Notes under the pieces: model-generated
Told to the model about the DNA's origin: nothing
What the model saw: only the letters and a program-made list of their open reading frames with translations
Databases searched by the model: none
Source of the DNA: Candidatus Obscuribacterales bacterium
GTDB taxonomy: Bacteria; Cyanobacteriota; Vampirovibrionia; Obscuribacterales; Obscuribacteraceae
Length of the DNA stretch: 64,000 nt
Assembly: GCA_965228855.1 (NCBI GenBank)
Contig: CBDDIJ010000003.1
Location: 704,001 to 768,000 of the forward strand
Direction: 5' to 3'
Position numbers and translations under genes: made by a program
Shown: piece after piece, positions 9,540 to 23,973 of the stretch
How positions within the stretch are numbered: the stretch's first letter is position 1
Layout: the number at the start of each line of letters is the position of its first letter

Positions 9540-9783
9540 AAGTTTATCCCGAGAGGCTTGTTGGGTCGCAGGGACTCATACCAGCTTAGTCTAGACCACG
9601 CTAAGAGACAAGCGCGGCGCGCGGTTTTGCGGCATTACCAGACATATGATTGGCGATCCTGTTAAGTATGTATGATCTTCCGCTTCCTTACAACGTCGTC
9701 GTTATATGATGGCTTTTATGTAAAACGCAATAGCGTTGGGTATCCTAAGTCGCAAATCAGTCCCAGCAGGTGGTGCAAATAGC

Positions 9784-10767
9784 ATGTTCGACCTATTCAA
9801 GAAACAATTTATCGACGTTATCGAATGGACGGAAAAGACCAACGGCGTTTTGGCATATCGATTTCCCGCCGAAGACCGAGAAATTCAATCCGGTGCGTCA
9901 CTCACGGTGACTGATTCCCAGATGGCGCTTTTCGTCAATGAGGGGAATATCGCCGACGTGTTCTCTCCCGGAAGATACACCCTTACGACAAAAACCTTGC
10001 CGATTTTGACGACGCTTTTGAACTGGGACAAGGCGTTCAAATCGCCGTTCAAATCCGACGTCTACTTCTTCTCGACACGCGAGCAAATCGACCAGCGCTG
10101 GGGAACTCCAACGCCAATTCAGATCCGCGACAAAGAGTTTGGCGTGATTAGATTGAGAGCGTTCGGAACGTTTTCATACAAGATTGAGGAACCATCGACG
10201 TTTTACCAGAAAATTAGTGGCTCTCGTGCACAATATACGGTAAGTGAACTGGATGGACAACTGCGGTCGCTAATTACAATGTCGATTGCCACGAAGTTCG
10301 GCAAGGGAGATGTTGCGTTCCTTGATATGGCAGGCAACCAGACCGTGTTCTCCGACGAGCTTAAGAAAGAGCTGGATCCAAAATTTTTCGAGTACGGTTT
10401 AAAGCTTGAAACATTTGTCGTTCAAAGCATCACCCTACCTGAAGAGCTGCAAGAATACCTCGACAAACAGTCGAAGATGAATCTTGTGGGCGACCTGCAG
10501 AAGTATGCGAACTTCCAGGTGACGGAAAGTATTCCGGAAGCTGCGGCGAACTCCGGCGGCGTCGCCGGACTGGGAGCTGGTATCGGTGCTGGTGCCTTGA
10601 TCGGGCAGCAGTTTGCCCAGTCGGCGCAGCAGCTCGGTGCGGGCGGCAGCGCAGCGAAAGAAGATCCCTACGAGAAACTCGAGAAACTCGCTGGACTCAT
10701 GGAAAAAGGTATCCTTACAAAAGAAGAGTTCGAACTGAAGAAGGCTGAGATTCTCAAGAATATTTGA
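9784..10767 (+). CDS. SPFH-domain (YdjI-like) protein with C-terminal SHOCT-like tail
   Basis: QFIDVIEW, WGTPTPI, LRAFG; EEFELKKAEIL; first gene of an overlapping operon. Confidence 0.85.
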   Translation: MFDLFKKQFIDVIEWTEKTNGVLAYRFPAEDREIQSGASLTVTDSQMALFVNEGNIADVFSPGRYTLTTKTLPILTTLLNWDKAFKSPFKSDVYFFSTREQIDQRWGTPTPIQIRDKEFGVIRLRAFGTFSYKIEEPSTFYQKISGSRAQYTVSELDGQLRSLITMSIATKFGKGDVAFLDMAGNQTVFSDELKKELDPKFFEYGLKLETFVVQSITLPEELQEYLDKQSKMNLVGDLQKYANFQVTESIPEAAANSGGVAGLGAGIGAGALIGQQFAQSAQQLGAGGSAAKEDPYEKLEKLAGLMEKGILTKEEFELKKAEILKNI

Positions 10768-11396
10768 TGATTGAACTCAGCTGCCCAGCTTGTGGTGCCC
10801 CCGTAGCGTTTCGTTCGAAAGCCTCGGTGTTCGCGGTTTGCAGTTTCTGCAAAACGACAGTCGTTCGTCACGACACGGATCTGGAAGCCGTCGGTAAAAT
10901 GGCGGAACTCCAGTATGAATTGACACCATTTCAGATTGGAACTTCCGGCATGTATGACAAACGCTCGTTTCAAATAATTGGACGTCTGAAGATCGCTTAC
11001 GAAGACGGATTTTGGAATGAGTGGTACACCATATTCGGTGACGATGGAGAAACTGGTTGGCTTGCCGAAGCTCAGGGTTTTCTCGCCATGTGTTTTGAAA
11101 TCAGCGATAAGAGCATTCCCAAGATTGATCTAATCAAACCCGGTTCCGATGTAGTAATGCCTCCTCACGGGCACTTCCAGGTAGAGGATATTCGGAATGT
11201 GCATTGCATTTTTAGTGAAGGTGAGTTGCCGGTAAACGCCGTTCAAGGCAGACGTTCCAACAGCGTCGACCTTGTCGGTGCGAATCGGAAGATGGCCACA
11301 ATTGAATATGCCGACACCACTCGCGCCTTCGTCGGCACATACCAGGACTTCGATGGATTCAAGTTTGAGAACCTGAGGAGAATCGATGGCTGGTAA
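10764..11396 (+). CDS. DUF4178 protein with N-terminal Zn ribbon
   Basis: CPACGAP...CSFC, WNEW, EGELP. Confidence 0.8.
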   Translation: MMIELSCPACGAPVAFRSKASVFAVCSFCKTTVVRHDTDLEAVGKMAELQYELTPFQIGTSGMYDKRSFQIIGRLKIAYEDGFWNEWYTIFGDDGETGWLAEAQGFLAMCFEISDKSIPKIDLIKPGSDVVMPPHGHFQVEDIRNVHCIFSEGELPVNAVQGRRSNSVDLVGANRKMATIEYADTTRAFVGTYQDFDGFKFENLRRIDGW

Positions 11397-12726
11397 TTCG
11401 GGTGAAGGTCGCGATCTGCGCAAGGAAAAGCCCAAAGTAACGACTTTCTCCTGCGGGAACTGTGGTGCACCAGTGACGGTGCGCTATCCGGGACACTCGC
11501 TGTCTGCAGTATGCGATAGCTGCTACTCGGTTATCGATACCAGTAACGAAGCATTCCAGGTCTTAAAAACCTATTTTCGGAAAGCGCACATTCAACCTCG
11601 CTTGGAACTCGGCTCCCGCGGCGAGTTGATGGGGAAAACCTGGGAATGTATCGGTTTCGTAGTCAGAGAAGACGGTGCCAGTAGTTTTAAATGGGAAGAA
11701 TATTTGCTGTTCAACCCCTATTATGGCTATCGCTTTCTGACTTGCAACAATGGTCACTGGAGCTTCGTGACCATGATAAAAGAACGTCCTGAGCGTTTCG
11801 CTGCTTATGCTGATTTTCAGAACAAGCGTTACAAGCTTTTCTATCAGGGACGCGCCCGGGTTCACTATGTTCTTGGCGAGTTCTATTGGCGAGTCTCTGT
11901 AGGTGAAGAGGTCAGCATGGCTGACTATATAGATCCACCGCAGATGGTATCAGTCGAGGATGATAAAAACTCACGTGTCTGGAGCGTTTCCGAGTATTTA
12001 GAGCCAAAAGTGGTATCGCAAGCTTTCGACCTATCCGGGGATTCCATTCCTCGCACAATCGGCATAGCGCCTAATCAGCCAAGTTCGGCAACGGTCAACT
12101 GGCGACAAGTCGGTCCAATGTGGGCATTGTTTCTTGTTGTTTTGACCGGGCTTCAAATATTCCACTGCACTCTTGCGAAAAACATCATCGAGTTTAGCGC
12201 ACCAATTGAATACGTAACCAAAATGGATGGTCAATTTGCGACCAGTGATGCCAAGCTTCCTGAATTTACGACCCCTGAATTCGTTTTGGATAAAGCCAAT
12301 GCAAACGTTGCGATCGACATCAATGCGGACGTCGACAACAGTTGGCTATATGTTTATGGCGAGTTGGTAAATACCGACACGGAAGAACTATTCACCTTCG
12401 AGCGCAGCATCGAGTACTACCACGGTTATGAAGACGGTGAGTCATGGAGCGAAGGGAGCAAGACTACCTCGATATTCATGCCGCAGGTTCCAGGCGGAAA
12501 GTATTATATGAATCTGGATTTTGACAATGGTGGCAACGCACAGGCGAACATGCGTCAAACCTTCAATGTGCAGGTCAAGCGTGATGTTCCGACCTTCCAT
12601 AATTACTTCTGGTGCCTGTTTTTAATTTCTCTATATCCGATTTTTGCGTGGATCAAATATCGGCAAGTTGAGGTCGCGCGCTGGTCGGACAGCGATTTCT
12701 CACCATATCAGTCGAGCAGCGACTAG
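11386..12726 (+). CDS. DUF4178 membrane protein with Zn ribbon
   Basis: CGNCGAP...CDSC, WEEYLL, GEFYW, two TM helices, GESWSEG. Confidence 0.8.
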   Translation: MAGNSGEGRDLRKEKPKVTTFSCGNCGAPVTVRYPGHSLSAVCDSCYSVIDTSNEAFQVLKTYFRKAHIQPRLELGSRGELMGKTWECIGFVVREDGASSFKWEEYLLFNPYYGYRFLTCNNGHWSFVTMIKERPERFAAYADFQNKRYKLFYQGRARVHYVLGEFYWRVSVGEEVSMADYIDPPQMVSVEDDKNSRVWSVSEYLEPKVVSQAFDLSGDSIPRTIGIAPNQPSSATVNWRQVGPMWALFLVVLTGLQIFHCTLAKNIIEFSAPIEYVTKMDGQFATSDAKLPEFTTPEFVLDKANANVAIDINADVDNSWLYVYGELVNTDTEELFTFERSIEYYHGYEDGESWSEGSKTTSIFMPQVPGGKYYMNLDFDNGGNAQANMRQTFNVQVKRDVPTFHNYFWCLFLISLYPIFAWIKYRQVEVARWSDSDFSPYQSSSD

Positions 12727-12742
12727 GAGGCAGGAAGCATTT

Positions 12743-12880
12743 ATGTCAAAACTCTACGGACTTTTGGGAGCGGCACTTTGTGCGTTCTTTTTCTTTGCCA
12801 CTGAAACCGGTATCAGAATTTTTGCTATCGACACCACGCCGCATACCCGACCCACCGGGGCGGCTTTACATCACAAATAA
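12743..12880 (+). CDS. Small membrane peptide of the DUF4178/DUF350 operon
   Basis: Purine-rich SD region, hydrophobic N-terminus, 45 aa, fills the operon gap. Confidence 0.6.
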   Translation: MSKLYGLLGAALCAFFFFATETGIRIFAIDTTPHTRPTGAALHHK

Positions 12881-12890
12881 GGGGGAGATT

Positions 12891-13106
12891 GTGGAATTAG
12901 TTAAGTTGAATTACATTGTCGCGGCAGTTGTGTACTCGGGATTGGGTATTGCAATCCTTTGTACTACTTTCGTGATCTTTGACTTGATTACGCCGAGCAA
13001 AATGTGGAAGGAAATCGTCGAGGAAAAGAATTTGCCTCTTGCGGTTTGTCTGTCTGCAATGACTATTGCTGTCGGGATGATTATTGCGTCTGCGATCCAC
13101 GGCTAA
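12891..13106 (+). CDS. DUF350 small membrane protein
   Basis: FDLITP...WKEIVEEKNLPLA...IIASAIHG; GGGGAG SD. Confidence 0.85.
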   Translation: MELVKLNYIVAAVVYSGLGIAILCTTFVIFDLITPSKMWKEIVEEKNLPLAVCLSAMTIAVGMIIASAIHG

Positions 13107-13121
13107 TATTCTGGTAGAAAA

Positions 13122-14624
13122 TTGACATACTCGCTTCTGATTACCGCTTTCGTCATCTCGACATGCGGTCTCGTGTACGAACTGATCGCCGGGACCGTCG
13201 CCAGCTATTTGCTAGGCGATTCGGTTACGCAATTTTCAACCGTAATCGGCGTGTATCTGTTTTCGATGGGAATTGGCTCGTTTCTCTCCCGTTATGTTGA
13301 TAAGGACATTATCCTGAAATTCATACAGGTTGAGATGCTCGTGGGTCTGGTTGGTGGCTGTTCTGCAGCGTTGCTCTTTATGTCCTTTGAGCATGTTGAA
13401 AATTTTCGCATTCTTCTTTATGCGTTAGTCACCGCCATTGGTGTTTTGGTGGGATTAGAGATCCCACTTCTTATGCGCATATTGCAGGACAAGCTGGAGT
13501 TTAAGGAACTGGTATCGCAGGTGTTCACCTTCGACTATGTAGGCGCGTTGTTGGCATCCTTGCTCTTTCCGCTGCTCCTTGTACCGTATCTCGGTTTGAT
13601 TCGCTCCGCGTTTCTCTTCGGAATTTTCAACGCGCTAGTCGCGGTTTGGACTGTACATCTGTTCCGTAACGACGTTAAGGGAACGTTTGGGCTCAGGTCA
13701 GCGGCCATTACTGTTGCCGCTGCACTTTCTGCCGGTTTTGTCTTCTCCGATCAGTTAATGACCTGGGCTGAGTCTTCAACATATCAGGAGCCGATTATAT
13801 TTTCCAAGTCGACTCCGTATCAGCGGATTGTAATCACGTGCAAAGGCAAAGAAGTGCGTCTGTTTTTAAACGGTAATTTGCAATTTAATTCACGAGACGA
13901 ATATCGATATCACGAAGCGCTGGTTCATCCGGCTATGTCCAGCTTAAAAAATCCGGAGAACATTCTCGTCCTCGGTGGTGGCGATGGAATGGCAGTGCGT
14001 GAACTCCTCAAGTATCCCTCTGTTAAAACCATTCAACTAGTCGACCTTGATCCGGAGATGACGAAGCTGTTTCGCGCTAAGGGTTTATTGTCGCAGCTGA
14101 ACAATGATGCGTTAAGCGACAGTAGAGTCACCGTGATCAATCAGGATGCTTTTGTATGGCTGCGAAAGTCGAAAGAAAAATTCGATTGCGCGATAATTGA
14201 TTTCCCTGATCCAAGCAATTTTTCGCTCGGCAAACTTTATAGCGATACCTTTTATAAAACAGTAAAGAGGGCGTTGAAACCCGGTGGTGTTTGCGTTATC
14301 CAGAGTACTTCTCCATATTTTGCGAAGAACTCTTACTGGTGCGTCGTGAACACTCTCGAATCAGTCGGATTTCACACGACACCATATCACGCATACGTTC
14401 CTTCATTCGGTGACTGGGGCTATGTGCTAGCGTCGATCGACAAATTCGAGCCTCCGGCAGCGTATCCGGCTAATCTCAGATACGTGACGGATGAGTCATT
14501 TCGTCAGATGCTTAACTTCCCACCGGATATGGTGGCAACTGAAAAGTGTGTCAATAAACTGAATAATCAAAAACTTGTTCACCTGTTCGAGTCTGAGTGG
14601 GGAGAATATGTTGAAACGTTTTAG
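13122..14624 (+). CDS. speE: Membrane-anchored polyamine aminopropyltransferase (spermidine synthase family)
   Basis: N-terminal TM domain (CGLVYEL), DEYRYHEALVHP, LGGGDG, DFPDP, VPSFGDWG. Confidence 0.92.
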   Translation: MTYSLLITAFVISTCGLVYELIAGTVASYLLGDSVTQFSTVIGVYLFSMGIGSFLSRYVDKDIILKFIQVEMLVGLVGGCSAALLFMSFEHVENFRILLYALVTAIGVLVGLEIPLLMRILQDKLEFKELVSQVFTFDYVGALLASLLFPLLLVPYLGLIRSAFLFGIFNALVAVWTVHLFRNDVKGTFGLRSAAITVAAALSAGFVFSDQLMTWAESSTYQEPIIFSKSTPYQRIVITCKGKEVRLFLNGNLQFNSRDEYRYHEALVHPAMSSLKNPENILVLGGGDGMAVRELLKYPSVKTIQLVDLDPEMTKLFRAKGLLSQLNNDALSDSRVTVINQDAFVWLRKSKEKFDCAIIDFPDPSNFSLGKLYSDTFYKTVKRALKPGGVCVIQSTSPYFAKNSYWCVVNTLESVGFHTTPYHAYVPSFGDWGYVLASIDKFEPPAAYPANLRYVTDESFRQMLNFPPDMVATEKCVNKLNNQKLVHLFESEWGEYVETF

Positions 14625-14633
14625 CCGAGCGAC

Positions 14634-16337
14634 GTGACTATGCCGAGACGTTTCAGTCGAGCTGTGTTTCTTGCGATGATGGGCGGCTGTGCGGTTGCTG
14701 CGGTGTCCGGAAAATATCTTCTTGACGCACTGAAAGCGCGAGTGAAATTCCCGATTCGTATGCTTGGTCCTTCGATGAACCGGGGACATATGATTCGCGA
14801 TGGCAAAATGCCGAAAGTCTTAACGGATGCAGAGCACGCAAAAACAAGAGTCACCATTATCGGTGGCGGAATGGCGGGTTTATCTGCTGGTTGGTGGCTG
14901 AAGAGAAACGGATTCTCAGACTTCAAGATTTTGGAACTGGAAAAGGAAGTTGGTGGCAATTCATCTTTCGGTAAAAATGGCATCAGTGCTTACCCCTGGG
15001 GAGCGCATTATGTTCCACTTGCCAATCCGGAGTCTGAATATGTTCGCATGTTTTTTCAGGAACTTGGAGTCATTCAGGGCGTTGATGCAAATGGTTTGGC
15101 AATCTATAACGACCTGTATATGTGTCACGACCCTGAAGAGCGGCTTCTAAAGGACGGCTCCTTTCAAGAGGGGTTGGTTCCTCGTCGCGGTTTACAACCA
15201 TCTGACAAGCAGGAATTTCAGCGCTTCTTCAAAGCGATGAAGCATTATCGTGAGCTGGTCGGTCGTGATGGAAAGCCAGGGTTCGCGATTCCTCTCGATT
15301 TGAGCTCGCAGGATGAAGAGCTGATTACCCTCGATAGAATTTCGATGGCGAAATGGATGAAGGAGAATAAGTTTCTGGGTAAGCCAATCCGATGGTATGT
15401 CGACTACTGTTGCCGAGATGACTACGGCTCACTTCCTGAACATGTTTCGGCCTGGGCGGGCATTCACTACTTTGCTGGGCGCAAGGGCGTGGCGGCTAAC
15501 GCGGAGATGAATTCTGTAGTGACGTGGCCGGCTGGAAACGGTTTTCTCGCTGACAAACTTCGTGAGATGTTGAATGGGAAAATCGAGACGGGAAGCGCAG
15601 TGTTCAACGTTTCCAGCACGGAAAGTGGAGCGACCGTTTCGTTTTTCGATGTCAAAGAAAATGCTGCCAAGATCATTGAGTGCGATTACGTGATATTTGC
15701 GGCTCCAAGATTCTTGGCTCGCCACCTTGTTTCACCTAATGGTCGAGACGAAACTATTTCTTCTCCGGGAATTTCTGCGCAGGCTGTACGTTCACAAAAT
15801 GAACCTGTCCAGGAGCAATTCGAGAGCGCTCAATATGCACCCTGGATGGTGGCGAACATCAGTTTGAAACGTGTCCCCGAGGGCAAGGGCGTTGGTCTTG
15901 CCTGGGATAATGTTAGCTTCTCAAGTCGTTCTCTCGGCTACGTTGTAGCTACTCACCAGAATATAACGACGCAGAGAGACGCGCCGACAGTCATTACCTA
16001 CTATTATCCAATGGCTCAGGATGAACCGAGCGAGTCTCGACGGATACTCTTAGAGCGCACGGCAGAGGAATGGTCACAATTGATCCTTGCCGACCTTGAA
16101 AAAATGCATAATGGTATAACGACTGAGATTACAGCGATGGATTTATGGCCGTGGGGTCATGGAATGATTCGTCCTTCGGTCGGTTACATCTGGGGCGAGA
16201 CTCGCAGAGTGATGAAGAAGAACATGGGAAATGTTTACTTTGCTCATTCGGATATGAGTGGGATCTCTAACTTCGAGGAAGCTCAATATCAGGGAATTGA
16301 AGCGGCTAAACAGGTTTTAGCCAGGGTGACGTCGTGA
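14634..16337 (+). CDS. FAD-dependent amine oxidoreductase
   Basis: IIGGGMAGL dinucleotide motif, WGAHY, CCRDDYG, FEEAQYQG. Confidence 0.88.
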   Translation: MTMPRRFSRAVFLAMMGGCAVAAVSGKYLLDALKARVKFPIRMLGPSMNRGHMIRDGKMPKVLTDAEHAKTRVTIIGGGMAGLSAGWWLKRNGFSDFKILELEKEVGGNSSFGKNGISAYPWGAHYVPLANPESEYVRMFFQELGVIQGVDANGLAIYNDLYMCHDPEERLLKDGSFQEGLVPRRGLQPSDKQEFQRFFKAMKHYRELVGRDGKPGFAIPLDLSSQDEELITLDRISMAKWMKENKFLGKPIRWYVDYCCRDDYGSLPEHVSAWAGIHYFAGRKGVAANAEMNSVVTWPAGNGFLADKLREMLNGKIETGSAVFNVSSTESGATVSFFDVKENAAKIIECDYVIFAAPRFLARHLVSPNGRDETISSPGISAQAVRSQNEPVQEQFESAQYAPWMVANISLKRVPEGKGVGLAWDNVSFSSRSLGYVVATHQNITTQRDAPTVITYYYPMAQDEPSESRRILLERTAEEWSQLILADLEKMHNGITTEITAMDLWPWGHGMIRPSVGYIWGETRRVMKKNMGNVYFAHSDMSGISNFEEAQYQGIEAAKQVLARVTS

Positions 16338-17473
16338 CACAGGCGATTTTGAAAACGGATGCAACCGCGCTTCCGAAGCAGCCGTGGCTTGCTTCAGTGA
16401 AATGGGATTGCGCTTTGATTATTGGTCCTGCGATCGTCACTTCGGTTATTGCGCTGGCTTGCAAACCTTTACTTGATAATAGTCAATTCATGCCGCTCTG
16501 GGCGTGGGTAACTTTTGTACTGGTCGTTGATGTTGCGCATGTTTACTCAACTCTATTTCGGACCTATTTTGATCGTCGCTCGATTGCCGAACATCACTTA
16601 TTGCTGGTTGTGATTCCGATCGCATGTTGGGTCGTTGGGTGGTTGTTGTATCGAACTGATTTTATGTACTTCTGGCGGGCACTGGCTTACCTCGCGGTTT
16701 TTCATTTCATTCGTCAACAGTTTGGTTTTGTAGCTCTCTATTCAAGAAACGATCCGCGAGCGTTTTTGAAGGTCCGCTGGCTCGACCAGGTGTGCGTCTA
16801 CACTGTGACGCTTTATCCTCTTCTGTATTGGCATACTCATTTACCTCGCAATTTTAACTGGTTTGTCAGTGGCGACTTTGTCAATGCGGTACCGCCTGTG
16901 GTGAATGAGTGTGCGCTGGCATTTTACTGTTTAGTTGTTACTGTTTACACTGCCAAAGAGCTGCTTCTGTTTAAATCAACGGGGTTTTTAAACATACCCA
17001 AGAACTTGATTCTGTTTGGAACAGCGTTGAGCTGGTGGGTAGGCATTGTCGCGTTGAATTCTGATCTTGCCTTCACCATGACGAATGTTGTCTCTCATGG
17101 CGTTCCATACATGGCGCTAATCTGGCTTTATCACAACAAGGCAAGTCGAGCCAACGCTGATGTTTCCAGTGCACAAACGAGGGCTTCGAAGTCGCTTGGG
17201 CGTTTCAGCAAAGATTTTCTGCTGTCATTTGCACCAGCGTTTGTGCTATTTCTCGTGCTTCTCGCTTATTTCGAAGAAGGTTTCTGGGACGGACTCATCT
17301 GGCGAGAGCATTTAACGTTTTTCACGCCGTTTGCCTCCTTGCCCGCTATCACCGACGCGACCACGCTTTCAATACTTGTGCCTCTGCTTTCTCTGCCACA
17401 ATCCACGCATTACGTCCTGGACGGTTTTATATGGCGTGTGAAGGACAAATCTGGTTCATGGTCTGCGAGGTAG
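16334..17473 (+). CDS. Polytopic membrane protein with conserved His motifs
   Basis: DVAHVYST, FHFIRQQ, HGVPY, THYVLDGFIW. Confidence 0.75.
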   Translation: MTQAILKTDATALPKQPWLASVKWDCALIIGPAIVTSVIALACKPLLDNSQFMPLWAWVTFVLVVDVAHVYSTLFRTYFDRRSIAEHHLLLVVIPIACWVVGWLLYRTDFMYFWRALAYLAVFHFIRQQFGFVALYSRNDPRAFLKVRWLDQVCVYTVTLYPLLYWHTHLPRNFNWFVSGDFVNAVPPVVNECALAFYCLVVTVYTAKELLLFKSTGFLNIPKNLILFGTALSWWVGIVALNSDLAFTMTNVVSHGVPYMALIWLYHNKASRANADVSSAQTRASKSLGRFSKDFLLSFAPAFVLFLVLLAYFEEGFWDGLIWREHLTFFTPFASLPAITDATTLSILVPLLSLPQSTHYVLDGFIWRVKDKSGSWSAR

Positions 17474-20517: not shown

Positions 20518-20600
20518 AGGAGCAGACAGGAGTTGAACCTGTAACCCTTGCAGGCAGACGGTTTAGCAAACCGCTTCCTCGACCGTGTCGGACCTGCTCC
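20518..20600 (-). tRNA. tRNA-Ser(GCT)
   Basis: GGAGCAG/CTGCTCC acceptor, TTGCTAA loop, long V arm, GTTCAACTC. Confidence 0.85.
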
Positions 20601-20604
20601 AAAG

Positions 20605-20708
20605 TCGCATCGTCACCAGCCAATCACTAGTATTGAATCTGGTGCTTCTCAGGGAATGGTGACCATGCGGCGTCCGGTGAAGACGCCGCGGGCGAGCAGA
20701 CGATGCGA
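20605..20708 (-). ncRNA. Unassigned three-way-junction structured RNA
   Basis: 10-bp closing stem TCGCATCGTC/GACGATGCGA with internal GCGGCGTC/GACGCCGC and CCAG..CTGG hairpins. Confidence 0.5.
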
Positions 20709-20713
20709 GCTAC

Positions 20714-20822
20714 TCGCGGTCACCTATATGACGGAGTCTAAGCATTTCCAGCGCACAGGCGGAAGAGGTTTCCGCCTGACCGCGACAGGTTTGATACCAC
20801 AAATATAAATGCTGACTCGGTC
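20714..20822 (-). ncRNA. Unassigned pseudoknotted RNA
   Basis: Crossing helices 20807-20822/20730-20747 and 20779-20785/20714-20720, with nested hairpin 20756-20778. Confidence 0.5.
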
Positions 20823-20827
20823 TAAAA

Positions 20828-20902
20828 TGGCTGCACAGGCAGGGGTCGAACCTGCGACAAATCGGTTAACAGCCGATTGTTCTGCCGCTGAACTACTGTG
20901 CA
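20828..20902 (-). tRNA. tRNA-Asn(GTT)
   Basis: Cloverleaf, CTGTTAA loop, encoded CCA. Confidence 0.93.
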
Positions 20903-20905
20903 ATA

Positions 20906-20987
20906 AGGAAGCAGAGGGACTCGAACCCCCAAACCTTGACGGCCAACTGTTTTCAAGACAGCGTCCTCATCCAGCCGGGTTGCTTCC
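20906..20987 (-). tRNA. tRNA-Ser(TGA)
   Basis: GGAAGCA/TGCTTCC, CTTGAAA loop, V arm. Confidence 0.88.
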
Positions 20988-21046
20988 GAGTGATACCGAA
21001 AATGATTTCGGTATCGCCGATAGTGCTTGCGAGCACGCTCGACATA

Positions 21047-21119
21047 AGCCGTTGACAGGAGTTGAACCTGCAACCTACTGTTTACAAGACAGCAGCTCTA
21101 CCAATTGAGCCACAACGGC
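21047..21119 (-). tRNA. tRNA-Thr(TGT)
   Basis: Cloverleaf, CTTGTAA loop. Confidence 0.93.
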
Positions 21120-21120
21120 A

Positions 21121-21195
21121 TGGAACCGCATCCAGGATTCGAACCTGGGCGCAAAGGTTTAGAAAACCATCGCTCTTCCGCTGAGCTAATGCGGT
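21121..21195 (-). tRNA. tRNA-Arg(TCT)
   Basis: Cloverleaf, TTTCTAA loop, CCA. Confidence 0.9.
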
Positions 21196-21196
21196 A

Positions 21197-21290
21197 TGGT
21201 ACCAGTGGTAGGGCTCGAACCTACAACCTTGCGCTAATCGGGCGCTCAACCGAGTATAAATCGGCCGCTCTGCCATTGAGCTACACTGGT
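21197..21290 (-). tRNA. tRNA-Ile(TAT) with long variable arm
   Basis: ACCAGTG/CACTGGT, TTTATAC loop, GCGC..GCGC V arm, ACCA end. Confidence 0.85.
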
Positions 21291-21320
21291 TCGTTTGTGA
21301 ACTAATTTAAGTAGCGAAGA

Positions 21321-21392
21321 TGGAGGCAGTAGGAATCGAACCCACTTAATGCTGGTTAAAAGCCAGATGCATAGCCACTCTGCCATACCTCC
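21321..21392 (-). tRNA. tRNA-Lys(TTT)
   Basis: Cloverleaf, CTTTTAA loop. Confidence 0.88.
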
Positions 21393-21509
21393 TAGCGTTG
21401 ATTCTCATCGACGCTATGCGTTTTGAACTCATATTGGAACCTCCGATGATGGAGCATGACCGTTTTTCAACGACCATGCTCCGAGACGCAAACTTGTTTC
21501 CGAAGTAAT

Positions 21510-21584
21510 TGGGAGCACTGACGAGAATCGAACTCGCATTTGCGGAGTGAAAGTCCACCTTCCTAACCATTAGAAGACAGTGCC
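21510..21584 (-). tRNA. tRNA-Glu(TTC)
   Basis: Cloverleaf, CTTTCAC loop, CCA. Confidence 0.88.
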
Positions 21585-21615
21585 GTAGAACCGCTTTTGA
21601 AGCGGAGTTGTAATC

Positions 21616-21688
21616 AACCCTTGTCAGGACTTGAACCTGAACGCTACTGGATCGGAACCAGTTGCTCTTCCGTTTGAGCTACAAGGGC
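21616..21688 (-). tRNA. tRNA-Arg(CCG)
   Basis: Cloverleaf, TTCCGAT loop; body nearly identical to Arg(ACG) at 22568. Confidence 0.9.
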
Positions 21689-21689
21689 A

Positions 21690-21820
21690 TGGGCCGTACG
21701 AGTTGGAGATACGAGTTTTTTACATCCCCATGTAGCGGGGATGATTGGAGTTGAACCAATTAGATTTGTGTTGGAGACAAATGTTTTACCGTGTGTAAGT
21801 ATCTTCTGTTAGAGTACGGC
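21690..21820 (-). ncRNA. Scaffold RNA carrying a circularly permuted tRNA-Trp(CCA)-like domain
   Basis: GCCGTAC-TCTAACA...AACTC-GTACGGC scaffold enclosing an anticodon arm (CTCCAAC), a T arm, then the acceptor hairpin CATCCCC/GGGGATG. Confidence 0.75.
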
Positions 21821-21829
21821 GGAAATTTG

Positions 21830-21898
21830 TTCGTGCAAGTCGTTGATGCGAAGCTAAGCTCGTTCAAAGAGTGTATGCATCAACTGTCGGAGCACGAA
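21830..21898 (-). ncRNA. Minimal scaffold RNA
   Basis: TTCGTGC-TCCGACA-GTTGATGC...GCATCAAC-GACTT-GCACGAA. Confidence 0.7.
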
Positions 21899-21901
21899 AC
21901 A

Positions 21902-21988
21902 TGGTCGGCGGGGCACGGATTTGAACCTGCGAAGTCTTGAGACGCGTGGGTTACGGCCACGCTGCTTTGGCCACTTGCATACCCGCCG
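21902..21988 (-). tRNA. tRNA-Tyr(GTA) with C1-G72 pair
   Basis: CGGCGGG/CCCGCCG-ACCA, CCGTAAC loop, V arm, bulged T stem. Confidence 0.82.
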
Positions 21989-22061
21989 GTACTGTTTGCG
22001 TTCTGAATCGGGGCGATACCAGAGTGGTATCACCGTGATACCAGACTGGTGTCATCAATGA

Positions 22062-22132
22062 AGTCCCTTGCAGGAATTGCACCTGCATAAACTGATTTGC
22101 AGTCAGTCACCTTGCTATTCGGACAAAGGGAC
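22062..22132 (-). tRNA. tRNA-Cys(GCA)
   Basis: CTGCAAA loop, U73, atypical TGCAATT T loop. Confidence 0.85.
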
Positions 22133-22133
22133 G

Positions 22134-22207
22134 TGGAGCCTATCATCGGACTCGAACCGATACCCCTAGCATGGCTCGCTAGGATTCTGCCTTTATACTA
22201 GATAGGC
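22134..22207 (-). tRNA. tRNA-Gly(GCC), atypical anticodon loop
   Basis: GCCTATC/GATAGGC-TCCA; loop GAGCCAT (G32, A33). Confidence 0.8.
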
Positions 22208-22208
22208 G

Positions 22209-22283
22209 TGGTTGCCGCAGAAGGATTTGCACCTACACTTGCTCACTTATCGGGTGAGTACTCTGCTGTTAAGTTATGCGGCA
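22209..22283 (-). tRNA. tRNA-Ile(GAT), atypical
   Basis: CCGATAA loop (C33), TGCAAAT T loop, ACCA end. Confidence 0.8.
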
Positions 22284-22284
22284 C

Positions 22285-22369
22285 TGGTGGAGGCAGTAGG
22301 AATCGAACCCACGTTGGTTTTGAAACCTCTGGTTAAGAGCCAGGTGCATAGCCATTCTGCCATGCCTCC
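22285..22369 (-). tRNA. tRNA-Lys(CTT) with variable arm
   Basis: CTCTTAA loop; GGTTTCAAAACC V hairpin; paralog of Lys(TTT). Confidence 0.88.
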
Positions 22370-22371
22370 AG

Positions 22372-22522
22372 GACGAGCGACATCGAGAACGGTTTCATGT
22401 TGCACATAGAAACCTCATCGTGCAGTTAGTCAGCTCGTTTCTGTTCTTGCACCACAGATGGTTTCGTTCATAAGACAGTCCCTTAGAACCGTTTTTTGCG
22501 AACCACATCTGGTGCTCGATGT
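22372..22522 (-). ncRNA. Unassigned multi-stem, possibly pseudoknotted RNA
   Basis: ACATCGAG/CTCGATGT closing stem, long hairpin 22449-22515, hairpin 22391-22414, crossing helix 22433-22439/22372-22378. Confidence 0.5.
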
Positions 22523-22567
22523 TTTAGACGTCACCCGGCGCCTGATAGCGCCTGCGGTGCTCTTAAT

Positions 22568-22642
22568 TGGAACCCTTGTCAGGATTCGAACCTGAAGCCT
22601 ACTGGTTCGTAGCCAGTTGCTCTTCCTTTAAGCTACAAGGGC
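22568..22642 (-). tRNA. tRNA-Arg(ACG)
   Basis: Cloverleaf, CTACGAA loop, CCA. Confidence 0.92.
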
Positions 22643-22682
22643 GCATGCCTGCTTATGGTTATGACACCGCAAGTAGGCGGTC

Positions 22683-22900
22683 AACCGTGCAAGTTGAAGT
22701 TACGGATCATCGCGTTTTACCGTTGCTCGAAATCTAGCCCAGTCCGCACTTACGCGTTGTTTAAATGATGGCTGCTTAAAGCCTACATCCTGGGTTTCTG
22801 ACGACTCCTCACAATCTCATTGCCATTTGAAACGACGGTTGGCTTAGCCAACTAGCCTCCTCTCGTACTGCTTGTATGTATCTTGGGTTGGGGCACGGTC
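22683..22900 (-). ncRNA. Scaffold RNA carrying 23S rRNA sarcin-ricin loop and L11/GTPase-centre mimics
   Basis: AGTACGAGAGGA at 22869-22858; CCCAGGATGTAGGCTTTAAGCAGCCATCATTTAAACAACGCGTAAGTGCGGACTGGG at 22794-22738; closed by GACCGTGC/GCACGGTT. Confidence 0.85.
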
Positions 22901-22903
22901 GCT

Positions 22904-22973
22904 TGCTCACCATCGGAATCGAACCGATTTCTCCATCCGGCGAGATGGATTTCTGCCATTGAATTAGGCGAGC
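22904..22973 (-). tRNA. Degenerate tRNA (Gly-like body, 8-nt anticodon loop CTCGCCGG)
   Basis: Acceptor GCTCGCC/GGTGAGC, canonical T arm, irregular D and anticodon arms. Confidence 0.6.
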
Positions 22974-22977
22974 ACAT

Positions 22978-23110
22978 AAACCGTACGAGTCGCGCTTGCA
23001 GGTGGGGCTTTACATTTCGCAGCCGTGAATTCCAGTTCCGGCAAGACACCCACAGTTACGTTTGTTTATTTGTTTGTGGATTGTAAGCAATCGCTGTTGG
23101 AGTACGGTTT
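22978..23110 (-). ncRNA. Scaffold RNA with A/C-rich single strand and small junction domain
   Basis: AAACCGTAC-TCCAACA...GACTC-GTACGGTTT; internal CACAAACAAATAAACAAAC and GTGGG/CCCAC domain. Confidence 0.72.
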
Positions 23111-23114
23111 TATA

Positions 23115-23185
23115 TTGCCGCAGCAGGTCTTGCACCTGCACGTGTCGGTTTATTCAACAAACACTCTGCGTTGATTTACACGGCA
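23115..23185 (-). tRNA. Degenerate tRNA-Ile(AAT)-like
   Basis: TGCCGTG/TGCGGCA acceptor like Ile(GAT), mismatched anticodon stem, loop TGAATAA, TGCAAGA T loop. Confidence 0.55.
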
Positions 23186-23186
23186 T

Positions 23187-23261
23187 TGGTACCCGATGAA
23201 GGACTTGAACCTTCAACCCGCTCTTTGTAAGAGAGACGCTCTACCATTGAGCTAACCGGGT
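23187..23261 (-). tRNA. tRNA-Val(TAC)
   Basis: Cloverleaf, CTTACAA loop, ACCA end. Confidence 0.92.
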
Positions 23262-23262
23262 A

Positions 23263-23339
23263 TGGTGCTTAGGGTCGGGGTCGAACCAACAACGCGCAGG
23301 GCTTCAACCTGCCGCTCTACCACTTGGAGCTACCTAAGC
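23263..23339 (-). tRNA. tRNA-Phe(GAA)
   Basis: Cloverleaf, TTGAAGC loop, ACCA end. Confidence 0.92.
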
Positions 23340-23340
23340 A

Positions 23341-23417
23341 TGGTGCTTCTGGAAGGAGTCGAACCTTCAGACTTCTGTTTTTGAAACAGATGCATGTACC
23401 GATTCTGCTACAGAAGC
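23341..23417 (-). tRNA. tRNA-Leu(CAA), short variable loop
   Basis: TTCAAAA loop, A73, variable region only AGTCT. Confidence 0.88.
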
Positions 23418-23420
23418 ATG

Positions 23421-23540
23421 TGGCCGTACGAGTCGAGGTGCAGTGTAGTTCACGGAGGAATCGAACCTCCAACTTCTGATTAATAGTCAGATACTCTTAC
23501 CGTTTGAGTTAGTGTGTATGCACGTCTGTGTGAGTACGGC
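23421..23540 (-). ncRNA. Scaffold RNA carrying a tRNA-Asn(ATT)-like D/anticodon/T core
   Basis: GCCGTAC-TCACACA-GACGTGCA...TGCACCTC-GACTC-GTACGGC enclosing perfect D, anticodon (CTATTAA) and T arms. Confidence 0.78.
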
Positions 23541-23547
23541 GCAGTTA

Positions 23548-23620
23548 TGGAGACGATCGGAGTTGAACCGACAACCTTCTCGTTGCAGGCGAGGTGCTCT
23601 ACCAGTTGAGCTAAGTCCCC
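23548..23620 (-). tRNA. tRNA-Ala(TGC)
   Basis: G3-U70 pair, CCTGCAA loop (C33). Confidence 0.9.
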
Positions 23621-23624
23621 AGGT

Positions 23625-23728
23625 GGAGCCGATCTTGGCGTTTCGAGATTGCGATGAAGACCCTCCGAGTTTGCGCCGGCAATGCGCTCGATCTTCGCAG
23701 AGAAAAAATCGTCGAAACAATCGGCTCC
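23625..23728 (-). ncRNA. Unassigned rod-shaped RNA with pyrimidine-rich internal loop
   Basis: GGAGCCGAT/ATCGGCTCC, GTTTCGA/TCGAAAC, TTTTTTCTC bulge, apical hairpin. Confidence 0.5.
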
Positions 23729-23734
23729 TGGTAC

Positions 23735-23810
23735 TGGTCGCAGAGACCGGATTCGAACCGGTAATTTACAGGTTATGAGCCTGCCGTGTTAACCGTTACA
23801 CTACTCTGCT
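23735..23810 (-). tRNA. tRNA-Met(CAT) with A1xG72 mismatch
   Basis: CTCATAA loop, ACCA end; Met versus fMet versus Ile2 not resolved. Confidence 0.88.
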
Positions 23811-23823
23811 AAATTTGAACATT

Positions 23824-23897
23824 TGCTTCTGGAAGGATTCGAACCTTCAGACCTCCGGGTTTAAGTCGGATGCATGTGCCGATTCTGCTACAGAAGC
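23824..23897 (-). tRNA. tRNA-Leu(TAA), short variable loop
   Basis: CTTAAAC loop; paralog of Leu(CAA). Confidence 0.88.
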
Positions 23898-23898
23898 G

Positions 23899-23973
23899 TG
23901 GCGCATCCCCTAGGATTTGAACCCAGATCGAACGAGTTTGGAGCTCGTCATGTTGCCGTTACACCAGGGATAC
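23899..23973 (-). tRNA. tRNA-Trp(CCA)
   Basis: Cloverleaf, CTCCAAA loop, GCCA end. Confidence 0.92.

Follow-up and report, generated by a model that had tools for sequence, protein, structure and literature searches.

A conserved RNA in a bacterial tRNA array unites a sarcin-ricin loop and a uL11-binding domain on a putative Ro60-type scaffold

The stretch of DNA analysed here, referred to as the window, comprises 64,000 nucleotides of a Candidatus Obscuribacterales genome and contains a tRNA array on its minus strand (20518..23973, 21 ARAGORN calls). Housed in the array is a 218-nt RNA (22683..22900, minus strand) that bears a sarcin-ricin loop and a uL11-binding domain on a predicted scaffold of the Ro60 type. 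It is delimited by a closing stem and a full-length match to the family model R1 (172.5 bits), and it is covered by contigs from RNA libraries. Directly upstream lies a degenerate tRNA-like gene (22903..22974, minus strand), from which those contigs continue into the element. Long hairpins are predicted in the array leader and spacers (24400-23974, 23735-23621, 22567-22370 and 21510-21393, minus strand), and the leader is partly conserved in related arrays. Spacer 22567-22370 was considered as a possible 23S-like stretch and rejected, as its match was marginal (29 against a shuffle maximum of 27) and it is missing from two related arrays. A promoter scan gave nothing above chance. The host genome has a second, small tRNA cluster of five genes on the same contig (1529761-1530653). 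Elsewhere in the window, positions 9736-17473 (plus strand) hold an ordinary cluster of SPFH, DUF4178, spermidine-synthase-like and amine-oxidase genes without a link to the RNA.

From 5′ to 3′ the modules of the element are P1, bulge, P2, UACA linker, sarcin-ricin hairpin, P4, then P5, an H42-like stalk, and H43/H44, all on the minus strand. The 8-bp closing stem P1 pairs 22900-22893 with 22690-22683, and both sides have changed in 4 of its 7 counted pairs across 35 copies of the RNA. Inside it lie a pyrimidine-rich 5′ bulge (22885..22892), which reads CCCAACCC in the window copy and CCYAAC in its family form, and a 3′ bulge strand (ACUU, 22691..22696); both are conserved in the family and in sibling RNAs. 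P2 follows (22878..22884 with 22697..22703), with both sides changed in 6 of 7 pairs. The conserved UACA linker (22873..22877), made of invariant alignment columns and also present in the siblings, leads into the sarcin-ricin hairpin (22854..22872), which has a 3-bp closing stem and a core that is exact in 33 of the 35 copies. P4 (22838..22852) is a variable hairpin proposed by folding prediction, and 18 copies from outside the Obscuribacterales have a covarying hairpin here. The remainder is an H42-like stalk topped by H43/H44 (22717..22816, the span of an Rfam match), within which the uL11-binding domain (H42 tip, H43 and H44) occupies 22738..22794. Comparison of the copies shows P1, bulge and P2 as a scaffold, and as its cargo a junction with the sarcin-ricin hairpin, the variable hairpin, and the H42-like stalk with its uL11-binding fold.

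The stem-bulge-stem scaffold is common to four other RNAs of the same array, two of which have tRNA-like cargo. Sibling A (23422..23541, minus strand) has D, anticodon and T arms resembling those of tRNA in a YrlA-like layout, with an Rfam tRNA match limited to model positions 5-66; its counterparts in two other genomes (G004 and G001) match YrlA weakly (E 0.007). Sibling E (21692..21821, minus strand) likewise has tRNA-like arms and a weak Rfam tRNA match (positions 8-63), while sibling D (21830..21899, minus strand) is a minimal form of 70 nt. The cargo of sibling B (22979..23109, minus strand) is neither tRNA-like nor matched to rRNA, giving nothing beyond shuffles against the host rRNA stretch. 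That cargo is conserved and is retained in three related arrays. A sixth scaffold RNA in the host genome, 68 nt long, lies 128 nt upstream of a Ro60-like gene.

An earlier note on this DNA, made from the letters alone, had placed two 23S rRNA motifs within one closing stem, and its comparisons held up throughout. Positions 22794-22738 are identical to positions 1051-1108 of the annotated E. coli 23S gene at 47 of 58 sites, the approximate figure of the note, and 22869-22858 is an exact copy of E. coli 2654-2665, a 12-mer with a chance of about 1e-5 in 218 nt of uniform sequence. The host's own 23S gene, located on another contig by blastn and the family model, agrees with the uL11 domain at 45 of 58 sites. 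It has the two sites 1613 nt apart and in the opposite order to the element, where the note had said about 1600 nt and reversed. The Rfam LSU model matches 22816-22717 (model positions 1071-1170, 52.6 bits, E 8e-13), which means that the likeness continues down the H42 stalk; this is the sole non-tRNA match in the window. As the note had claimed, the pairs 1051-1108, 1087-1102 and 1090-1101 are all C-G in the window copy, and positions 1097-1098 differ; one base is missing from the 1067-1068 loop. The window copy does not keep the combination of A1067 and A1095, which we take to be the thiostrepton site; its loop is shortened and starts with U. The unusual C1087-G1102 and C1090-G1101 pairs also occur in Micrarchaeota 23S genes (L148, L152, L156).

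The likeness is confined to these modules. The element's three other segments match E. coli 23S rRNA no better than shuffles do, and an H69-like reading of its 3′ end was dropped when 40 of 200 shuffles scored equally well. No collinear rRNA was found beyond the two modules, and by this test the element is not a 23S gene or pseudogene. Positions 22683-22900 have no tRNA or YrlA match in Rfam, and besides the partial LSU match no Rfam 15 family, GOLLD and ROOL included, reaches its gathering score there. The element has in common with H42-H44 and the sarcin-ricin loop (H95) of 23S rRNA their sequence, secondary structure and tertiary-contact bases, but it is free-standing, carries the modules in reversed order and about 63 nt apart instead of 1600, and has a relaxed H43 tip.

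Searches yielded 35 full-length copies of 203-268 nt, 52-99% identical to the window copy, in Obscuribacterales, oxygenic cyanobacteria, an Armatimonadota genome and metagenomes; this set includes some close kin, and the copies found by pattern were selected for parts of both motifs. Of seven same-genus genomes, three carry the element at the equivalent place in the array, with identities of 99, 72 and 70%. A pattern scan of one genome per species returned 24 loci, 12 of them free-standing copies (Nostoc, Anabaena, Spirulinaceae, other cyanobacteria, Obscuribacterales, Armatimonadota) and 12 genuine 23S genes, which were left out of all counts. The covariance-model search that the earlier note had proposed for other tRNA arrays reached well beyond the genus: a model built from 13 sequences found full-length copies, scoring at least 141 bits, in 13 of 150 further genomes from the phylum. 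Matches to 23S genes scored at most 77 bits, well separated from these, and 39 of the 52 model-positive genomes were set aside (the host itself and 38 with nothing but partial matches of the 23S type). Eight further copies came from a metagenome scan with 11 loci, the other three being chance matches. Two copies on plasmids fall where no feature is annotated, in a feature table that lists no RNA genes. One genome (G118) has a second, longer copy of 268 nt (L212:3165-3432, minus strand).

In the alignment of the 35 copies, 93.4% of cells are paired and 18 of 29 pairs have changed on both sides. No shuffle reached this level, and slid partners gave at most 6 pairs. This alignment was fitted to the model; with MAFFT the corresponding count was 18 of 30, and RNAalifold recovers the same helices. 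The folding energy of the window element is by itself unremarkable (z -0.80), so the structural support comes from covariation. The sarcin-ricin core is exact in all 14 copies found by the model rather than by pattern. Its flanking stem has at least three pairs in 32 of 35 copies (mean 3.7, compared with 2.2 after shuffling) while varying in sequence, so that a 12-nt core closed by a predicted helix is retained. RNAalifold also predicts a competing helix between the invariant UAC of the linker and the GUA of the loop, which would disturb the sarcin-ricin fold.

The uL11-binding domain retains the pairings of the H42 tip, H43 and H44 together with the tertiary-contact bases. U1060/A1088, G1071/G1091-C1100, A1084, A1085 and A1103 are invariant in 35 of 35 copies, and we take U1060/A1088, G1071 with G1091-C1100, and A1085 to be tertiary-contact bases of the domain. 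U1072 is found only together with U1092-A1099 (13 of 13 copies), presumably the base triple of uL11-rRNA structures; C1072 occurs with U-A in 7 copies. In the literature searched, including the accessible part of PMC1919483, we found no paper stating the 1072 triple. A1067 is present in 25 of 35 copies, A1095 in 34 and A1098 in 32, the window copy having U1098. The H43 tip (1067-1070) has the rRNA sequence in 12 of 35 copies, compared with 15 of 15 host 23S genes. A tandem GA/GA kink-turn below the uL11 domain was found by a loose pattern in 29 of 35 copies, not including the window copy, in which it is eroded. Kink-turn 42 is the uL10 site. Stalk length and spacing are conserved. All 4 Obscuribacterales copies are slightly nearer to the 23S of their own family, and the remaining 31 copies to oxygenic 23S. 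We consider it likely that the H43/H44 fold binds uL11, and also uL10 in the copies with a kink-turn; the resulting particle would resemble the stalk base beside the sarcin-ricin loop.

The existence of 35 full-length copies with strong covariation argues against rRNA decay, and the earlier note's view that the fold is under selection stands. Homologous arrays conserve the motifs, and the pairings covary. Together the comparative data support a conserved, covarying and free-standing mimic of the factor-binding centre that is neither a chimera nor decaying rRNA.

Contigs from three metatranscriptome runs of two studies, about 99% identical to the window, cover 22699-22951, 22739-22964 and 22686-22955 at depth 2-3; the runs were chosen with this region, DNA carry-over is possible, and the contigs give neither strand nor level. 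They hint, weakly, at a transcript that ends near 22686 and is joined to the upstream degenerate tRNA. Most of the array is spanned by another run, probably of DNA. Array parts that are uncovered in the RNA runs were not counted as evidence.

The host genome encodes a vWA protein of 525 aa on the same contig as the window (about 1378650-1380225, equivalent to L213:16649-18226, plus strand), some 650 kb away; its gene is 47% identical to the vWA gene of Nostoc-type loci. Pfam TROVE misses this protein, and tblastn of the host genome with an ordinary cyanobacterial Ro60 likewise found nothing. The absence of any Ro60 link that these two results first suggested was overturned by profile and structure searches. 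The profile matches phage and animal Ro60 in the PDB (E 1e-4 for phage Ro60), and hhalign pairs it with cyanobacterial Ro60 over 300 columns (89.7%). The predicted structure (pLDDT 88) has as its 12 best PDB matches only Ro60 chains, aligned at full length with TM 0.53-0.63, at 13-16% identity to solved Ro60. As modelled, the vWA protein has the full Ro60 fold, and by profile, hhalign and predicted structure it is the host's Ro60 orthologue. The subfamily is large, with 2386 relatives among 8000 candidates scored, and it also occurs in 15 viral loci.

When 31 loci with the Ro60-like gene were searched with the RNA model, all 39 scaffold matches lay upstream on the gene's strand, many within 300 nt (a fortieth match was dropped as a phage uL11-site RNA). 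They came from 10 of the 16 genomic loci and 9 of the 15 viral ones. Other scaffold RNAs lie within about 4 kb of the gene on the same strand at 19 of the 31 loci. For the rRNA-like RNA itself, the gene is a same-strand neighbour within 8 kb in 6 of 13 carriers found by the model, and within about 4 kb in G082, G145, G185, L155, L157 and L164, not in the host genome. Nostoc-type loci have the order tRNA-like scaffold RNA, 477-521 aa vWA gene, another gene, rRNA-mimic RNA, a conserved 277-aa gene to which searches gave no name, and ThiF gene. A gene for a 277-317 aa protein and a ThiF-like gene also follow the RNA in Nostocales and in a metagenome copy (L157:2303-3813, minus strand; L213:3682-5282, plus strand); this pair, possibly further parts of the system, lies 11 kb from the host's Ro60-like gene. 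Among genomes, the Ro60-like gene is present in 15 of 16 carriers; of those that lack the RNA, 1 of 19 oxygenic and 6 of 11 same-family genomes have it. These genomes were hand-picked from earlier steps of the analysis, and because they are related to each other the co-occurrence is overstated. One genome (G121) has the RNA and lacks the gene.

With its scaffold clustering upstream of the Ro60-like gene and the gene present in nearly all carriers, the RNA looks like a Y RNA that imitates rRNA instead of tRNA. We therefore think it quite probable that the scaffold is bound by the divergent Ro60 that Pfam's TROVE model misses, and we infer that it behaves as the Y RNA of that subfamily, its 5′ bulge being the putative Ro60 contact where known Y RNAs have their CGAA motif. 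This set resembles the bacterial Y RNAs (YrlA/YrlB, Rfam RF02553; D. radiodurans Yrn1; phage phiLo Yrl1/2) in several respects: a terminal stem-bulge-stem is combined with an effector module of its own, more than one RNA goes with each Ro60, scaffold RNAs are encoded directly upstream of a gene with the Ro60 fold, and tRNA-like arms occur, here in siblings. The stem-bulge-stem is plain in the element, where P1 and P2 covary in 35 copies. The element differs in that its effector imitates 23S rRNA rather than tRNA, its bulge is CCYAAC rather than GNCGAA, Rfam gives no YrlA match, and its putative partner belongs to a Ro60 subfamily that Pfam TROVE misses. The YrlA motif GNCGAAN0-1G, described near the 5′ end (PMC4201824, in the part accessible to us), is absent from the element, as is the tRNA-like D/T arm module, which siblings A and E have. 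Because the motif is missing and Ro60 binding is putative, we describe the RNA as one that may work in the manner of a Y RNA, and we do not assign it to YrlA. The earlier note's idea of a factor-centre mimic is upheld; what it overlooked is that the closing stems form a separate module tied to tRNA-like RNAs and a divergent Ro60.

A search of viral contigs with a pattern for the uL11 core found at least 120 loci. Among the matches listed, one is a full 23S gene and two resemble rRNA pieces; most of the remainder are RNAs that stand alone close to tRNA genes and have an insert separating 1090 from 1091. None of 20 loci tested has an Rfam family, and we found no description of these RNAs in the literature searched. 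A first viral pattern had given three loci, all chance loop matches, one of which happened to contain a phage uL11-site RNA. The phage RNAs resemble the element in presenting the 1051-1108 fold free-standing, mostly in tRNA clusters, but they are closed by a plain helix and usually have an insert of 29-366 nt between 1090 and 1091; one pattern for the scaffold motif found it in 0 of 120 loci listed. Three of them (L087/L165, L118/L166 and L248) carry a complete sarcin-ricin hairpin in the uL11-domain insert, and one of the three sits just downstream of the divergent Ro60-like gene. The layout differs from that of the element, which suggests that the pairing of the two sites arose more than once. 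Other features of these RNAs include an 8-mer of a small hairpin motif shared by 14 inserts (L021-L140) and a GOLLD RNA 120 nt upstream of one locus (L023:1582-2047, plus strand). Cultured phages of Pseudomonas, Aeromonas, Xanthomonas and Vibrio also have such RNAs, without annotation.

RNA mimicry of a protein-binding site of rRNA has precedents in the leader of rplJ (L10) and other ribosomal-protein mRNA leaders. These are cis-acting leaders of ribosomal operons, whereas the element precedes no such genes, combines both factor-binding sites, and shows no leader match in Rfam. Long one-strand tRNA arrays are also known from the cyanobacterial trn operons and the TrcR regulon, and an RNA of this kind goes unmentioned in the accessible parts of PMC8421152 and PMC10272220. 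The TrcR box, known from the Anabaena trn operon and linked there to translation stress (PMC10272220, in part), lies in the 60 nt before 8 of 18 stand-alone copies, compared with 0 of 16 array copies, and none was found upstream of the window's array. More widely, the portions of the full-text literature searched (including PMC4201824, PMC8421152, PMC10272220, PMC12135203, PMC8661411 and PMC1919483) describe no such RNA, in line with the earlier note's statement that it knew of none; YrlA tables and motif catalogues could contain scaffold RNAs.

The ORFs next to the copies include NADAR, PARG, Macro, Tpt1, RNA ligase, ThiF, HEPN and PIN domains (Pfam, 61 hand-picked ORFs, without a background rate). 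No Ro60 or repair gene is adjacent to the window copy, and none of these domains was found in the 16 ORFs of the window that were scanned. An invariant sarcin-ricin loop away from the ribosome would need a reader that recognises it as rRNA, either GTPases or toxins. The toxin Tre23 attacks H44 at bases 1095-1098, and cleavage of the sarcin-ricin loop by a VapC is cited in the same source (PMC8661411, as far as accessible). The copies mostly keep the Tre23-target bases, at the frequencies given above for A1095 and A1098, and genes for ADP-ribose removal and ligation recur nearby.

Our best guess, which we hold at slightly less than an even chance, is that the Ro60-held RNA serves as bait, a decoy or a sensor, for ribosome-targeting toxins. 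The divergent Ro60 would hold the RNA by its scaffold handle, and under translation stress the complex would bait enzymes that attack both rRNA sites, namely nucleases and glycosylases that cut the loop and ADP-ribosylating toxins of H44. The bait may act as a decoy, or as a sensor whose damage neighbouring repair enzymes would handle, and the tRNA-like siblings could play the same role against enzymes attacking tRNA. Against the bait reading, a decoy would compete with many ribosomes and be consumed when cut, and the Ro60-like gene also occurs without this RNA (the 6 of 11 same-family genomes). The H43 tip contacts EF-G and thiostrepton. Because that tip is relaxed in the family and strict in 23S genes, the thiopeptide-decoy and EF-G-sponge roles listed in the earlier note have lost ground. 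Its L10 (uL10) sponge is weaker for the window copy, with its eroded kink-turn, and gains from the kink-turn found in most copies.

It is also possible, although we give it clearly lower weight, that the Ro60-held mimic serves the cell's own proteins, storing or titrating uL11 and uL10-bL12, or offering an off-ribosome platform for translational GTPases or RelA, during ribosome damage and recycling. The invariant uL11-binding core, the frequent kink-turn, and the conserved stalk length and spacing would all be expected of such a role; the TrcR box ties the RNA to translation stress, and the copies are slightly nearer to their own group's 23S. Yet the H43 tip is relaxed, and storage of stalk proteins alone needs no invariant sarcin-ricin loop.

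Less probably, the RNA truly mimics rRNA but has a scaffold unrelated to Ro60, the two merely travelling together in one stress module. The missing YrlA motif, the distance of the Ro60-like gene from the RNA in the host genome, and the genome with the RNA and no gene (G121) would fit this, but the uniform position of the 39 scaffold matches, upstream and on the same strand, often at less than 300 nt and in phages and the host as well, makes it unlikely. We are similarly doubtful of a spare part or repair aid, in which Ro60 would bring the RNA to damaged 50S subunits and the modules would stand in for a cut sarcin-ricin loop or stalk base, or guide its religation. Neighbouring genes for RNA ligase and Tpt1 and two RtcB genes in the host genome speak for it, as does the report of Rsr with partly degraded ribosomes (PMC4201824, in its accessible part); but it is hard to see how modules in reversed order and with non-rRNA flanks could be inserted into a subunit, and they are sense copies with no antisense complementarity. 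Functionless 23S fragments or an assembly chimera, for which one could cite the unremarkable folding energy and the window copy's lost loop base and kink-turn, are extremely improbable and effectively refuted by the covarying copies, by the same array position in three related genomes, by a single contig of an independent run covering 22414-22844, and by genuine Micrarchaeota 23S genes with the same C1087-G1102 and C1090-G1101 set.

Taking the bait reading together with the scaffold family, we lean slightly towards a modular set of Ro60-held RNAs in bacteria and phages that carry interchangeable copies of translation targets. The rRNA-like member would be a miniature factor-binding centre assembled with uL11, acting off the ribosome as bait or sensor, and it would be the first Y-type RNA to imitate rRNA. 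The partners of the variable module of bacterial Y RNAs are described as unknown (PMC4201824, as far as accessible to us). A natural swap of rRNA for tRNA in this module suggests that it holds interchangeable imitations of translation targets. The swap involves the two best-known functional sites of the large subunit and can be tested in laboratory cyanobacteria. The RNA offers a natural model of the factor-binding centre in 200 nt, and its analysis has uncovered a large Ro60 subfamily that Pfam misses. It may also represent an RNA-based defence of ribosomes.
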